Made by a program: the position numbers and the translations under genes. The notes below the pieces were generated by a model. That model worked only from the letters and a program-made list of their open reading frames with translations. It ran no database searches and was not told where the DNA came from. A stretch of 62,732 nucleotides of DNA from Perkinsus olseni (taxonomy: Eukaryota). The DNA lies in assembly GCA_013115125.1 (NCBI GenBank), contig JABANN010000142.1, positions 1-62,732 on the forward strand. Reading direction: 5' to 3'. Below are positions 15,161-62,100 of this stretch, in pieces; within the stretch, counting starts at the first letter, position 1, and each line of letters starts with the position of its first letter.

Positions 15161-17120
15161 ACAATCTCCACTTATATTCTCGAGTATTTGAAGGCGCCAG
15201 TATTTTCTGCAACAAACGCGGCATACTTGACACTGTCGAGGTGCATTTTTATTTGACGGTAGCTCATTCTAAGACCCAGCGAAGTAAACTACATCACTTC
15301 GTTTGTATTTTCCATCAACCAGAGAATGCAAGATATGGATAAGAGAAGATGAGGATGAAAGTGACTCACTCCGCGTGAGGATAAAATTTTCTCATCCTCT
15401 AATTCCACTTTGGAATATGGATGAGCAGTTTCGGCTCGCTGTGCTCTCGTAGATTCGAGAACAGTGCGTTCGGCTCAGATTACCCTCTCGCTCGAGTCGA
15501 TGGGAATGGGCGGGCGACGGGATGTTGGGAGTACGAATATTTCTCGCCCTACGGCTCTCAGAGCAGTGCTCTGTTTTCGGGAAGCCAACGGCGTTGGCCC
15601 ACCGCCCTCTCATCGAAGTGAGCGAGATAATTGGATAGACTGACCGGTCCGTCAGCTACGTTGTCGAGGCTCGGAGCTCATCCAGTGATTCGAGACGGAG
15701 TGATCAGCTCTACAGAGTCTGCGAGCACATTATGGGGTTCCGCAGTTCGACACCTGACTAACTAAATCATCGTTGTGGCGGCATTAGTGACGTCCCTAGT
15801 GCTGCCATGAGACGGTCCACTTTAAGATGTTTTGCAGACGCGTCGCAATCTTCGGACTGAAGGAATCCTTTAAAAGGATTGAGTTGTAACTCCAGAACCA
15901 CTGTAAACGACTCTCGCTGAGATATTCAAGCTAACAAAATCTATGAAAAAATGTATCACGACATGACATATTCTGAGATTCTCTATCGAGATAATCTATC
16001 GAGACATCAACCCGAAATGGGCATATGGTCCGACTCAGATCGGCACTCGGAGTTGTACAGAAAATTCGGTGAACATGCACAAAAATTCGAATCCCAGGAT
16101 GTTAGTTTGATCTGAGCTGCTGAGACTTTCAGCCTTGGCAAATTGCTAGGCGAGATCCTCAAGACAGCTGGCATGCAAGAGCTACTTGAACAGCTTCAGA
16201 AATAGTACAATGGCGGTTTGATTGACGCAGAGAACCCCAAACCGCACGGGGAGCTTACACTAAGAGCGTGCACGGGGGGACGAAGTGGGCCGAGAGATTT
16301 ACCGGACAGAGAAAGTATGGAGTGGGAAGTTGTATATATAGATTCTAGATCACCCAAATTGAACATATCAGTGATATGATATCACCGTGGAACTATCACG
16401 CGCAGCCAGAACTGAGAAACATCGAATTATAAGGTTGGCTACTGCGTGGCCAGGCTTGCTGGTGATGATGTATGCACGCCTATCCTTTCGACCCGTATCG
16501 TGAGGATATGAAAGCGACTTGCGAGAAAACCTTGAGGTCCCTTACGGTTTGTGCTCCTTGTGAGCCCTTGTAAAATAGGCCCCTGGTCTTCATGCCTTCA
16601 TGCTTGCCGAAGGAGACAGTTCCTAGCGCGCTTCATGGTGCGCGCTTGACCATGTGAGAGACTTCGCGTCAATACCTTCCGAGTCACTTGAGTCAGTGAG
16701 AGGTGGTAGCATATAAGTCCTGAGAGTGTGAGCCTACAGAAGAACTCAGCAGAGGGAATACTGAGACACGGAAGTCCTCGCAATTCGAACAATGAGCGGC
16801 TAAGCAGCCATCGATTGAAGACGAACGAATCTCATGTTCAAGTAGACAGGGAGACAGTCCCAGGGGGTACGTAAGCCCAATCCGAGGGTAACTCCAGTAC
16901 GGGACGAAGCTGAGGAACTTCCTTAGAGGAAGTCCCAGAAATGAGATAAGTAGTCCAAGCGAACTCCATACGCAACCTAGTGGCGTACACAAACGTGAGA
17001 GGCGACGTGCCAGGTAACATTATGTTCCGAACATAATGGTGCCAGCGAGACTCGCCACCGACCGCTGCCCTCTGCTGCTAGTACTGCCCTCACCATTCTT
17101 ATCATTTCTGAGGGCTTGTC

Positions 17121-17190
17121 TACTGTGAGGGGTCGAACCCGGGTCACCAGGGTGATAGTCAGCCGCTCTACGTACTGAACTAAATTTGCC
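17121..17190 (-). pseudogene. tRNA-derived relic (SINE-like or tRNA pseudogene)
   Basis: Minus strand has A-box-like TAGTTCAGTACGTAGAGC, loop CTATCAC and B-box GGGTTCGACCC at tRNA spacing; acceptor and anticodon stems pair poorly. Confidence 0.5.
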
Positions 17191-17257
17191 GGGTTCCCGC
17201 GAAGTTCAAAGTCCTCTTTGGACTTGCCTGTCGTAGCGGAGCGGAGCGTGATTCACG

Positions 17258-58167: not shown

Positions 58168-59174
58168 CTACCCTTCACGGCGTAGTCTCCTACAAGGGCC
58201 CAACTCGCTGTGATCGGACTTATGACAAATATGGCGTCCGCAGTAATCAGCGCCAGCCGAGACCTTGCAATATGTGCCATAGTACTCGTAGCAGAACTCA
58301 CCAGGGTTCGCCAGGCCCGCGCAACCATGCTGCTTGTAGAGTTCAACGACATTTTGAGCGCCAGCACTAGCAGGTGCCTTAGCAGGCGCAGGAGCTGATT
58401 GCTTCGTCACCGGCTTAGCAGTCGTCTCCATCACCACTGAGCCCACAGCGTTAGCGTTAGTGACCGCGATGTCCGCACAAGTCGCGAAGTAGAAAGGGCC
58501 AAACTTCCACATCCAGTGTATAACGTACTTCCCGGAATAAGTCTCCGGGATAACCACAATAGCAGAAGTTTCGTGATGAGCGTGATACGGCAAACACAAC
58601 TCTAGGATCTTGAAGTCACTCCAGTCGGGGTCAGCTGAGTAAGGCGCGATGCGAACTTGGACGCAGGTACCTGGAAAAGTACTCTTATTCTGGCAGATAA
58701 GGCACATTGCTACCATCAGACTCTCCGTGAGTATGACCATTGTTCTTCCAGTAGATTCTTAGTGCCTTGCCTGACACGTGACCGCGTGAAAGTCTGTGGA
58801 CTAGAGCTTAGCTCACCAGCAGTGACGGCTGCAATCTCCTCAACATTGGGCGCGCCTGGAGAGCCGCTAACCCGGCACGGACGCAAGCTGCTCTGATCGA
58901 GCATTATCTCATGCTTGGGCTCGAGGAAGCACTCCTCGAGGGATCTCAAAGGACAGATGTACCGCTGAACAGAACCGGAGTTCGTAAATAACTACAATAG
59001 AGGAGAGCTTACCGTGAAGTAGTCGTCATCGGGGCCAGATATCCCCATCCTGGGATACCCGTCTTCGATGTCACCTTCTAGATAGAACATCCAACTGTGC
59101 CCAGTCGCGTAATGAATTATCGTAGAGAGCACAAGTGCTCGCGAGAGCGCGTTTCTGAAGGAGAGGGATGCCAT
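58168..59174 (-). CDS. Secreted His1 LPMO-like protein, copy B
   Basis: Signal..YATG|HSWMFY..GYPR, WKNNGH, YVIHWMWKFGPFYFATCADI, linker and the same Cys tail. Confidence 0.75.
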
Positions 59175-62100
59175 GGAAGATGTACTGAGCAAATCAGAGA
59201 GCCTAGGGGTGGTTGAACTTCAGGAACACTCAGTCCCCGCAATAGCCCACCGAGAGAGTAACAACAGTTTCGCAGCAACAGCAGCCGTTTCGACGACTCG
59301 CAGTGATTTAGCGCGCGCCCCGGTCCGGGGTGTCCGTTCTCGATTCTCTCAGGCGGGATGGCTAGACGTCAAGCGCTCATCGTCACTAGATCTCGCGTGA
59401 TGCTCAACACACTTCGCGTATTGCTACTGAACACTTAAAGAGAAGAATCTTCACCGTAGCAATGAACGTGAACTCTAGAAACATGAATGTATTACGGATA
59501 AGCCAATTTGGCGTCGCCAAACAGCTCAGATGCGTGAAATATCGCTTGCCAGGTGAGCCGGATGTGAAGTACGCCGTATCATACGTAAAAAGGTAACCAA
59601 CGTGTAGTAAGGTACATACGGCCCGTATTCACCTTACTTAAGCTGCCATGTACCGTACTCGTACGACTCAGAGCATCCCACCAACGACCAGTCAGCAGCA
59701 ATTCCGACCACTCCCTGACCGCATAGGCTGTGAAAGTCGCCTACTTTCCAAGAAACTGGATCACCCACTAGTGTGAGGCTCGCTGTTTCTTTAAGCCCCA
59801 TCACCTCCCTCCTTCGCCTGCTTTCCTTTAGAAAACAGAACGGTCCACTGCGCCAGACAAGTTCGGAAACCGGACCGGCTCTCGAGGGTCGGCCGGCCGT
59901 GTTGGAACGTGATGGAACCTGATCGGCTGCTGGCATACGCAGGCCACCCAGCCCAGACGCATCTCAGAAGTTCACACACTGCAAGTTCAATCGGAGCCTC
60001 TTGCGACAGTCCAACGGGCGTCGCGAGAGGCACGATTGGACGGTCAAAAATCGACACAACCGGAAACCAGCGTGCACCCTGGTAATCGACGCACAGAGCA
60101 CGCACGCGCCAAGCTAGTTGAATCACCCTCCCCGGGTGACAGCGGAAGTCAGCCGCTGAGTCCAGCGCGGTCTCTGAGCCGCGCTTGAACCGCTCGCGGT
60201 TCAGAATGCGGGCCTTAGCCCCATTCGTCAAGGACCATAGTCCTTGTGGAGTTTCCTTTTCAAAAAAGATCAGAGAGGAGCTCAATACTCGCCAAGCCAC
60301 AAATGACCCGGACAGCGCCACGCGCGACAGATTTCGACCCGCCGCCACGACCTCGACGTCGGCCAGGGCCCCGCGCGGTGACGCCCCGACACGGGGCAGT
60401 CCTCGCTGGAAAGCGAGGCGAGTCGCCTGTGCTCGGGCCTGTTGGCTGAGAGATCATAGCACAGCGGCCTTCACCAACGGGTCGAAAGCGGAGTCTCCCA
60501 GCGACCGTCAGGGACGCTTGACAGCGTCCCGAGCCTTTGCACGGGTCGCGGGTTCGTTCGGGCTTCGGCTTCGTGTGTTAGTTTACGAGCTCAGCTGAGC
60601 CAGCCCAAGCTCACAGCCTTGCATCACAGAGCAGCTGCGGTGAGCTAGGAGTCGCTCGGTAATACTCGCCGGTTTCATGTTTCCCAATGTTGAGTATTCC
60701 CGGGAGTGACTCGATTTTTGACAGTCCCCGATCAATAATCCAATTTACTTTGGAAGTGTCGTGCCCGGGAGTCCCGCGGCCGGAACGGAATCTAGCTGAA
60801 CGCTCTCACCGACCTTAATCGCTCTCACAAGAAGTTACCCAGCAGCTCTGAAAGAGTAGCTCGAACCTGAGTAGAGGAAAATCACTAAGAGTGATTCACT
60901 CCTGCTGGCCAGGCAGTGCCAAGGCAATATACTCGCGCCAACAGCACCCCCGCGGCCTCCTCACAGTGCGAATTCGACCTCAGGTTTCCGGAAGCGGCTG
61001 AGATGAAGATTCGTAGCGTACTAAATCATGAGCACTAGGCCTGTCTGATCGGCAACCCCGATGTGGCAATCCCATCTGGGGTCAGAAACTCTGCAACACA
61101 TCTTGAGCCAAACATTGAAACATCGTGGACGTGATACCATCACGGTGTTGACTGGTTGCAGTGGATGGTATGTCCCAAGAATCTCCGGAGTCTCCGGAGA
61201 ATCTCCGGTTCAGACGGTCTCTGACTAGCGCCAACCATGAACATGCTTCTGTGAAGTCCATCACTGTGAAGGCTTCATCTTCCCCTTAATCTCGCCCGTA
61301 TGGAGATGTGTCTAAAGTGTAGCGCTAGGAGTTTGAAACTCCGAGTTTCCAGCCTATAACAAGCTACGTTATGGCCGTCACATCGTCAGTGTAGACCGCA
61401 GTGCCTTGTATCCCAAAGGTCTCACACCTCTACCATTAATATCTACCACCATTAACGTAACTAGGGTCCACATGGGGTTGAGCCAGCCTTCCATGCCACC
61501 AATCTGACCCGCCACTGCGACTGACCAGTCAGTGTGACACTGGCAGTAACGACTCGGTACTAACGAGTCAAAAATAGGAAAGAGCACCCCCACAGGGGAC
61601 CTGACGCCGTTTATCGGCTCCTCGTCTGTCATAGTTTGACTGCAAACTATGGAAGACGCGACGTTCTCCAATATTTCTGCTTTGGCTGGAAGCGCCGGGG
61701 TGGAATGGCAAGCAAGTATTGAATGAGCGCTTGACCAGATCCATAAGTAGAATAATTACAGATCTGGCGGAACGTCCTATGGCCTGTGAGATCATGACAA
61801 GACAATCGCTAAGGTACGTAACTTCCTCAAACAGTCAGGAAAGGTTATTGAAATGACCCTTGATGCTTGGCGTTCTAGCCTGGAACCTCCAGCATGAATG
61901 CCATCATGGCATAGCCATGGGGCCTCGAATTAAAATAGTTCCGAACTAACAGTGTTTCTCCCATAAACTCGACCCCGGTCAACCAGCCTCACCATGAACT
62001 TTCGAGGCGGTAAGATTCCCGGCGGGAAGTTCCCGGAGAAGACTTCTCCTGAGGGATCAGCAGCCCGCAGACAGCATGGAGTGTTTCATGATGAAAATTC

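Follow-up and report, generated by a model that had tools for sequence, protein, structure and literature searches.

The question raised by a 62,732-base stretch of DNA from Perkinsus olseni, a parasite of clams and molluscs, is what process produced the family of 22-nt 'zig-zag' sequences that it contains. Each zig-zag has the form X(1-7)+rc(X)+X(2-8), where X is an 8-mer and rc(X) its reverse complement, 22 nt in all. An initial annotation of this DNA had read them as footprints of hAT transposons, whose excision seals the flanking DNA as hairpins. Our analysis makes it probable that the 22-mers are donor-site scars, left in P. olseni by the excision of cut-and-paste transposons of the hAT type. 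The hairpin-excision reading is supported by a sharp peak at an 8-nt length of X, by the presence of the zig-zags in independently assembled contigs, and by the occurrence of a single X at a site where the window has a zig-zag.

The whole 62,732-base stretch, called the window below, was the DNA analysed, and scans over the length n of X were limited to it. Its proteins matched P. olseni entries at 99%, 94% and 93% identity. Pfam matches comprised aspartyl protease, cyclophilin, subtilase and gemin2-like pieces, and scans of the window with Rfam and for tRNAs gave no matches. Contigs were taken from public runs of the same organism (X1, X5, X8 and X10); several studies hold the stretch, and X5 and X1 come from different ones. 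The distance d is the minimum number of substitutions that separates a 22-mer from a perfect zig-zag. Counts were non-overlapping, and ten shuffles served as control. Coordinates are window positions, and no strand is assigned to the zig-zags, to the transposable element or to the empty site described below.

Structure, abundance and distribution of the 22-mers

The ten sites listed in the initial annotation, five described as perfect and five as having one mismatch, all had the structure claimed for them. Its chance figure of about 2e-4 perfect cases per window agreed with our computed expectation of 0.00023, and its five perfect cases proved to be an undercount, as the full scan of the window gave 15. 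A peak at n=8 had also been predicted. The peak is sharp: no perfect zig-zags were found at n=6, 7, 9, 10, 11 or 12, and at smaller n the counts were near chance (18 against 15.3 expected at n=4, and 4 against 0.96 expected at n=5). The scan was generalised to n=7-9, with 0-2 bases lost independently from the left and the right arm. Enrichment was confined to one arm geometry, n=8 with the loss of a single base from each arm (15 matches); the other 26 combinations gave no matches, except for one combination with a single match. Two matches at n=10/a=3 were alternative parsings of the zig-zags at 47179 and 49374. The 24-mer X+rc(X)+X, in which no base is lost, does not occur in the window.

Palindromes and direct repeats were also counted separately. 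Odd palindromes with 7-nt arms numbered 48, against 2 in the shuffle, and even palindromes were at background level. Direct 6-mer repeats had their maximum at a spacing of 14 (48 against ~11). Spacings of 8-12, which correspond to classical short footprints, gave 17-27 repeats against ~10-11 in shuffles, a generally raised background with no clear peak like that at 14. All 15 perfect zig-zags and all 27 with one substitution have complementary bases at positions 8 and 22, and likewise at positions 1 and 15. The zig-zags separated from the perfect form by up to two substitutions, together with one older, overlapping copy, are given below.

10879-10900, perfect zig-zag, X=CTCTGATG
16364-16385, perfect zig-zag, X=CATATCAC
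23997-24018, perfect zig-zag, X=CTTCACAG
24938-24959, perfect zig-zag, X=TTTCGAAC
28784-28805, perfect zig-zag, X=CTTCAGGT
43914-43935, perfect zig-zag, X=GCTCAACC; insertion of 14 nt, shifting the frame of an aspartyl protease gene copy; X8 contig 14 letters shorter
44470-44491, perfect zig-zag, X=GTCTCATG; present in X1 and X5 contigs
44702-44723, perfect zig-zag, X=GGAAGAGA; present in X1 and X5 contigs
45667-45688, perfect zig-zag, X=GACTCGAC; begins with the final 3 bases of the older copy at 45648-45669
45648-45669, older zig-zag, X=CCGCCGAC; 2 arm-to-middle mismatches, by eye one middle-arm substitution; outside the non-overlapping counts
45733-45754, perfect zig-zag, X=GTACTAAG
45915-45936, perfect zig-zag, X=CTTGGGCC
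49374-49395, perfect zig-zag, X=CACCGTAC
51423-51444, perfect zig-zag, X=GTCTAGTC
53371-53392, perfect zig-zag, X=CTGCAGAA
61328-61349, perfect zig-zag, X=GGAGTTTC
13667-13688, one-substitution zig-zag
14374-14395, one-substitution zig-zag
15552-15573, one-substitution zig-zag
15584-15605, one-substitution zig-zag
15858-15879, one-substitution zig-zag
16911-16932, one-substitution zig-zag
17014-17035, one-substitution zig-zag
17592-17613, one-substitution zig-zag
18057-18078, one-substitution zig-zag
21958-21979, one-substitution zig-zag
23201-23222, one-substitution zig-zag
24758-24779, one-substitution zig-zag
26955-26976, one-substitution zig-zag
31845-31866, one-substitution zig-zag
32256-32277, one-substitution zig-zag
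33638-33659, one-substitution zig-zag
38860-38881, one-substitution zig-zag in an M16 peptidase intron, followed by a fourth inverted arm to ~38897
39600-39621, one-substitution zig-zag in an M16 peptidase intron
41429-41450, one-substitution zig-zag in an M16 peptidase intron
42131-42152, one-substitution zig-zag in an intron, seen as a gap of 47 columns in the exon match 42265-41963
42654-42675, one-substitution zig-zag
45521-45542, one-substitution zig-zag
47179-47200, one-substitution zig-zag upstream of a cyclophilin exon
55421-55442, one-substitution zig-zag
59500-59521, one-substitution zig-zag
61546-61567, one-substitution zig-zag
61898-61919, one-substitution zig-zag
11024-11045, two-substitution zig-zag
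18549-18570, two-substitution zig-zag
18717-18738, two-substitution zig-zag
23168-23189, two-substitution zig-zag
40693-40714, two-substitution zig-zag in an M16 peptidase intron
41106-41127, two-substitution zig-zag in an M16 peptidase intron
41306-41327, two-substitution zig-zag in an M16 peptidase intron
46993-47014, two-substitution zig-zag
48852-48873, two-substitution zig-zag
60881-60902, two-substitution zig-zag
62015-62036, two-substitution zig-zag
62083-62104, two-substitution zig-zag
62256-62277, two-substitution zig-zag
62278-62299, two-substitution zig-zag

At d=0, 1, 2, 3 and 4 we observed 15, 27, 14, 22 and 70 copies, against means of 0, 0, 0.3, 5.7 and 49 in the ten shuffles. 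Corrected for the shuffles, the series reads 15, 27, 14, ~16 and ~21, a total of ~90 recognisable copies. The series is nearly flat, as would be expected if zig-zags were produced constantly and then decayed by point mutation. A rough estimate of ~18 scars per class in 52 kb would correspond to one scar per ~130 substitutions, with scars making up roughly 2.5% of the scar-bearing DNA. At ~10 further loci the three-arm core is kept, with loops of other sizes or a 1-nt insertion or deletion. The zig-zag at 45667 begins within the end of the older copy at 45648, and the one at 38860 bears a fourth arm.

In non-coding DNA the zig-zags have a density of ~1-2 per kb. The first 10.7 kb of the window hold none of the 56 copies with d<=2, against 9.6 expected (P=7e-5). 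This zig-zag-free part (1-10700) has a strong excess of G over C and of T over A on the plus strand. By eye, we take it to hold conserved, intron-bearing housekeeping genes; the translation of ~4040-4300, for example, presumably represents a RuvB-like helicase. Clustering of zig-zags at 12-18 kb, around the transposable element described below, was not significant (10 against ~6.5 expected).

The single substitutions are unevenly placed. Among the 27 one-substitution zig-zags, 12 are changed at position 2 of X, 2 at the mirror position 7, and none at positions 1 and 8. Changes at position 2 of X fall at indices 2, 14 and 16 of the 22-mer, and examples are the zig-zags at 15552, 15858, 17014, 24758, 38860 and 61898. 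Some scars may have been born imperfect, through an error at the first nucleotide filled in. Among 104 strand-symmetrised observations of the targets inferred from 52 zig-zags, 41 had T at position 2 or A at position 7, where ~25 were expected (p=6e-4). A preference for nTnnnnAn is thus present in the inferred targets, as a weak bias.

Length differences between assemblies and gene copies

Contigs of the runs were compared with the window over 43000-62700, which holds ten perfect zig-zags. Among the contigs listed, those of X5 spanned nine of the ten without any gap, and those of X1 spanned eight. The zig-zags therefore stand in short-read contigs from two separate studies, and an assembly artefact is ruled out.

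The zig-zag at 43914-43935 lies within a protease gene, and a second site, discussed further below, lacks a zig-zag in the window:

43104-44359, minus strand, aspartyl protease (peptidase A1) gene copy, with a frameshift at 43914-43935 and an in-frame stop at 43350-43352
54089-54096, empty site with a single TTCTCGAC, the state of the window

The frameshift and the in-frame stop make the protease copy a pseudogene with two lesions. The zig-zag is the exact point at which the coding sequence passes from one reading frame (frame A, 43916-44419) to another (frame B, 43350-43964), both on the minus strand, and the offset between them, 455 bases, is equal to 14 modulo 3. When the window was searched by tblastn with a paralog of the protease (P0006), the sole change of frame over residues 2-423 fell at this zig-zag. 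A protein from another P. olseni assembly (P0007), whose identity to the two halves of the protease is 93% and 91%, crosses the junction in one frame, reading ...QPIPLLGLSLPSPGLEREQPSLL... (LLGLSLPSPG). Residues 1-150 of P0007 align with frame A, and the alignment with frame B starts at residue 148. Paralog P0006 also has a single frame at the junction (...GLIGLSLPR...). In the window, arm 1 of the zig-zag encodes 'GL' in frame A and arm 3 encodes 'LSLP' in frame B. Together with the uninterrupted reading of P0007 and P0006, this indicates that the homologous site elsewhere holds a single X. The empty state predicted by the initial annotation is thus seen at 43914, through P0007, P0006 and an X8 contig that is 14 letters shorter, and so is the stereotyped +14 bp product, since the zig-zag is a 14-nt insertion relative to the single X.

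X8 is a divergent strain. Its contig over 43486-44101 aligned to the window with a total of exactly 14 gap letters and was 14 letters shorter. Eight X8 contigs were listed in all. Intervals containing young zig-zags had 14, 22, 38 and 34 gap letters, with X8 shorter each time; intervals free of zig-zags, covered by three of the eight contigs, had 3, 0 and 4; and one interval with only a d=3 candidate inside had 16. This pattern of gaps is suggestive of length differences linked to the scars, and falls short of proof. The opposite arrangement was found at 54089-54096, where X8 has 31 extra letters and a 6-letter repeat, made up of forward and inverted copies of TTCTCGAC. Judged by its sequence, the X8 insert is a complex zig-zag scar, and the site is the reverse case of 43914. 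Two other deletion joints of X8, at 59571-59633 and 62144-62362, were considered and rejected, being unlike excisions of an element.

Exons of an M16 peptidase were located by tblastn with protein P0005 at 42265-38306 on the minus strand. Seven zig-zags fall in this range (42131, 41429, 41306, 41106, 40693, 39600 and 38860), and all seven lie between exon matches or in the 47-column gap, an intron, of one match. The initial annotation had placed every one of its sites in intergenic, intronic or pseudogene DNA. This stood for the sites that our check covered, namely 43914 in the protease pseudogene and 38860 and 39600 in M16 introns. Over the family as a whole, the positions shown comprise introns, intergenic DNA and a pseudogene.

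Other features of the region concern the host genes. A gene model of another assembly, FOZ63_018747, starts just past the 43914 zig-zag and joins the C-terminal half of the protease to the downstream M16 exons; this annotation is probably chimeric. A 185-nt segment at 46588-46772, 89% identical to 44118-44302, represents the N-terminal portion of another aspartyl protease copy, residues 1-115 of P0006 matching 46832-46488 at 88%. The cyclophilin gene at 47403-48676 has GT..AG introns of 231, 149 and 51 nt, as seen in spliced contigs of the RNA-like run X10. On the minus strand, 56421-56930 and 58168-58758 are adjoining paralogous genes that carry the UniRef name of their 99% match, 'chitin-binding type-4 domain'; both are without a Pfam match and have relatives in P. 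chesapeaki. Near the start of the window, 74-214 is a tandem array of five copies of a 28-nt unit, with 92% matches.

Filled site, proposed excision pathway and rival explanations

A filled site, in which an element stands between two copies of X, was the further state expected from excision of a transposon. One exists elsewhere in the window:

14854-15160, filled site occupied by a 307-bp MITE (miniature inverted-repeat transposable element), with CAGGGTGGCCCA as perfect terminal inverted repeats of 12 nt and with GGAAGAATG repeated in its subterminal parts

The MITE is flanked by an exact 8-bp duplication, ACAATCTC, at 14846-14853 and 15161-15168. All five GGAAGAATG motifs of the window lie within its subterminal parts. 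Short terminal inverted repeats combined with subterminal repeats are hAT-like, and the MITE, seen in one copy, has both. Its ends begin with CAGGG, and we take them to be of the YARNG type, a motif of hAT ends. A relaxed scan for filled sites, allowing a 7-of-8 duplication and a 10-of-12 terminal repeat, gave 2 matches against 0-3 in shuffles, so that no filled site beyond the MITE rose above chance. Self-BLAST of the window found just four repeat pairs of at least 60 nt, and none was informative on the zig-zag sites.

Repeats of very high copy number occur at 49570-52197 and 62053-62700, with a summed contig depth of up to 15,510, compared with ~95 in single-copy DNA. Among them are MITE-like units with inverted ends of ~90 nt finishing ...GTGCAA at 50720 and 51779. 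For the units at 50386-50720 and 51690-51779 (ends TTGCAC...) no clear duplication could be read, and they were not linked to the zig-zags. Metagenome contigs were scanned for the end of the MITE and for the end of the high-copy repeat, with no match to either.

From the structure of the zig-zags we infer an excision pathway that would run through flank hairpins with a one-base offset, long 3′ tails and an annealing step, and whose algebra was derived by hand. Insertion of the element would duplicate 8 bp (X ... X). At excision, transposase would nick one base inside each flank, and the 3′-OH of the flank would attack the other strand. The flanks would thereby be sealed as hairpins without that base, the left one reading L-X1..7-c(X8)-rc(X1..7)-rc(L) and the right one being its mirror image. 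The hairpin ends would then be cut or resected at a distance of 8 nt or more from the tip, and the resulting 3′ tails would contain the duplication in inverted form; opening near the tip followed by blunt joining, as in plants, would not be used. The left tail would end with rc(X) and the right bottom-strand tail with X, and the two would anneal through these 8 nt of complementarity. Removal of flaps and fill-in would yield L-X1..7-rc(X)-X2..8-R, with both centre bases complemented and always 14 bp gained, and the scars would afterwards decay by point mutation. By this derivation, the product observed corresponds to annealing over the full 8 nt of rc(X)/X, with the joint at complementarity that already existed. 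Short joints made without a template would give direct-repeat spacings of 8-12, where no clear peak like that at 14 was seen. The same hairpin algebra without loss of a base would produce the 24-mer X+rc(X)+X, which is absent from the window. The first nick of hAT transposases is reportedly offset by one base, an observation said to go back to Zhou et al. 2004. Such an offset would lead to arms of 7 rather than 8 nt.

Several points weigh against an origin of the zig-zags in hAT excision. One robust filled site against ~90 scars is an extreme ratio, and the duplication that flanks the MITE, ACAATCTC, does not fit nTnnnnAn, the bias towards which is itself weak in the inferred targets (39% against 25%). 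No transposase was found among the 30 of 45 stop-to-stop open reading frames (ORFs) of at least 130 aa in the window that were scanned with Pfam. The empty state was seen against the scar at 43914, and in reverse at 54089, and no site showed the filled, empty and scar states together. P0007 is possibly a close paralog of the protease copy instead of an allele, and the 14 letters by which X8 differs are a gap total, which could conceivably be made up of several smaller gaps. The asymmetry between strands in the substitutions, with position 2 of X changed more often than position 7, is not predicted by the model. The one-base offset of hAT nicks is backed just indirectly by what PMC5873905 describes.

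Four other origins were considered. Chance and sequencing or assembly artefact are already refuted: there are 15 perfect zig-zags against 0.00023 expected, shuffles gave none at d=0 and d=1, contigs of two studies carry the identical sequence, a series of mutational decay exists, and the zig-zags avoid exons. An origin without any transposon, through template switching during replication or through an endogenous nuclease acting at random sites, seems very unlikely to us. Template switching can create short inverted duplications, and the ~10 non-standard loci with other loop sizes would be in keeping with it. However, it offers no reason why the length should be precisely 8 nt and each arm one base short, where neighbouring geometries gave 0-1 matches against 15. 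In addition, the composition of the targets leans towards the hAT pattern, and the structure equals that of two hAT-type hairpins joined via the target duplication. The zig-zags could also have arisen in one step, by a 'hit-and-run' or abortive integration in which a transposase with an 8-bp stagger attacks the DNA and leaves at once, so that no element was ever resident. Excision and such an integration would leave the same end product, and ~90 scars against a single intact filled site in 52 kb are what such a process might leave. We nevertheless think it improbable, because the MITE with its intact 8-bp duplication indicates that stable insertions do occur in this DNA, and we know of no precedent for integration scars of this kind.

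Another superfamily that seals flanks as hairpins or duplicates 8 bp (Mutator-like, Merlin, P or an undescribed one) might instead have left the footprints, repaired by the same annealing; this too we hold to be unlikely, if a little less so than abortive integration. Mutator-like elements (MULEs) are described as forming flank hairpins and having 8-10 bp duplications (PMC5499845), Merlin-related sequences with 8-9 bp duplications have been reported in Perkinsus marinus (PMC8101967), and the 30 of 45 ORFs scanned yielded no hAT transposase. The flank hairpin of Muta1, as described in PMC5499845, consists however of 43+43 nt, both complete strands with no base lost, and would give the 24-mer X+rc(X)+X, of which the window has none. 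The same account gives the excision of Muta1 in yeast as >90% precise and the terminal repeats of MULEs as typically >100 bp, whereas the ends of the resident MITE are 12 nt long. According to the account in PMC8101967, Merlin ends start with GG, and neither terminal repeats nor duplications could be identified in the Merlin copies of P. marinus; the MITE ends start with CAGGG. The lean of the targets towards nTnnnnAn fits hAT. On this evidence we retain excision of hAT-type elements as the probable origin of the zig-zags.

Implications and comparison with known systems

Excision footprints of hAT elements with palindromes derived from hairpins are known already. Undescribed in the literature that we searched are a single dominant product in which the whole target duplication serves as the joint, and a density of 1-2 scars per kb of non-coding DNA that forms a natural, datable record. 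The search yielded no description of a stereotyped scar made of target-site duplication, inverted duplication and duplication, although individual yeast junctions of such form may exist in print, and none of hAT elements in Perkinsus. It also found no statement on NHEJ (non-homologous end-joining) genes in Perkinsus, a genus that PMC6635534 does not name in its main text.

If hAT excision is the origin, a scan for one 22-nt pattern would provide a genome-wide, roughly datable map of cut-and-paste transposition, events that normally leave almost no recognisable trace. The uniform product would read out how double-strand breaks capped by hairpins are processed, and it would predict repair driven by annealing, possibly without classical end joining, which bears on the outcomes of genome editing in Perkinsus. 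The scars would be a measurable mutational force that adds DNA and breaks genes, as with the protease copy that one of them frameshifts. Being polymorphic between strains, they could serve as strain markers for an economically weighty mollusc parasite. More speculatively, and with considerable doubt, we suggest that hairpin opening of the Artemis/Ku type may have been lost or bypassed in Perkinsus, leaving a single annealing product, and that highly mobile hAT MITEs may have written tens of thousands of +14-bp scars. In that event the scars would be a major and still active source of added non-coding DNA, of genes killed by frameshift and of sequence able to form hairpins, as well as a datable, site-by-site record of transposition; to our knowledge, no comparable record is available from another eukaryote.

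The closest known system is Ac/Ds, studied in plants, Saccharomyces cerevisiae and Candida albicans (PMC5873905). According to that account, hAT excision adds palindromes whose centre is the complement of the nucleotide adjoining the element; in yeast they have arms of up to 20 nt, and they are explained by the hairpin model of Coen et al. 1986. The Perkinsus scars share with Ac/Ds the 8-bp duplication and the complement-centred palindromes, and the yeast joints use microhomology, as the proposed joint would. Ac/Ds footprints are heterogeneous, with 28 types among 128 events in C. albicans, mostly with a palindrome of 0-3 nt (PMC5873905), whereas one product dominates here. In contrast to those of Ac/Ds, the palindromes in Perkinsus span the whole duplication, share a middle arm and always add 14 bp, and they form a natural genomic record at ~1-2 per kb of non-coding DNA. 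Hermes is described as preferring nTnnnnAn targets (PMC10368747); the scars resemble its insertions in the 8-bp duplication and in the lean towards this motif, with a weaker bias here (39% T/A at the key positions).

Palindromic (P) nucleotides at the coding joints of V(D)J recombination also derive from a hairpin-sealed flank, as set out in the introduction of PMC5499845. The scars would resemble these RAG-dependent P-nucleotides in that origin of the palindrome. RAG nicks exactly at the border, which leads to even palindromes, and its hairpins are opened off-centre; the P-stretches are 1-4 nt long, and joining uses Artemis together with Ku and Lig4. The Perkinsus palindromes differ in being odd, with 7+1+7 nt, and their joint would need 8 nt of complementarity. 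The proposed joint is closer in kind to MMEJ, or microhomology-mediated end joining, and to single-strand annealing, which act without classical NHEJ and in which, as described in PMC6635534, resected ends anneal at short homology, flaps are removed and gaps are filled in. MMEJ normally deletes sequence; in Perkinsus, the homology would instead be created by the unfolding of the hairpins, and the outcome would be a fixed gain of 14 bp.

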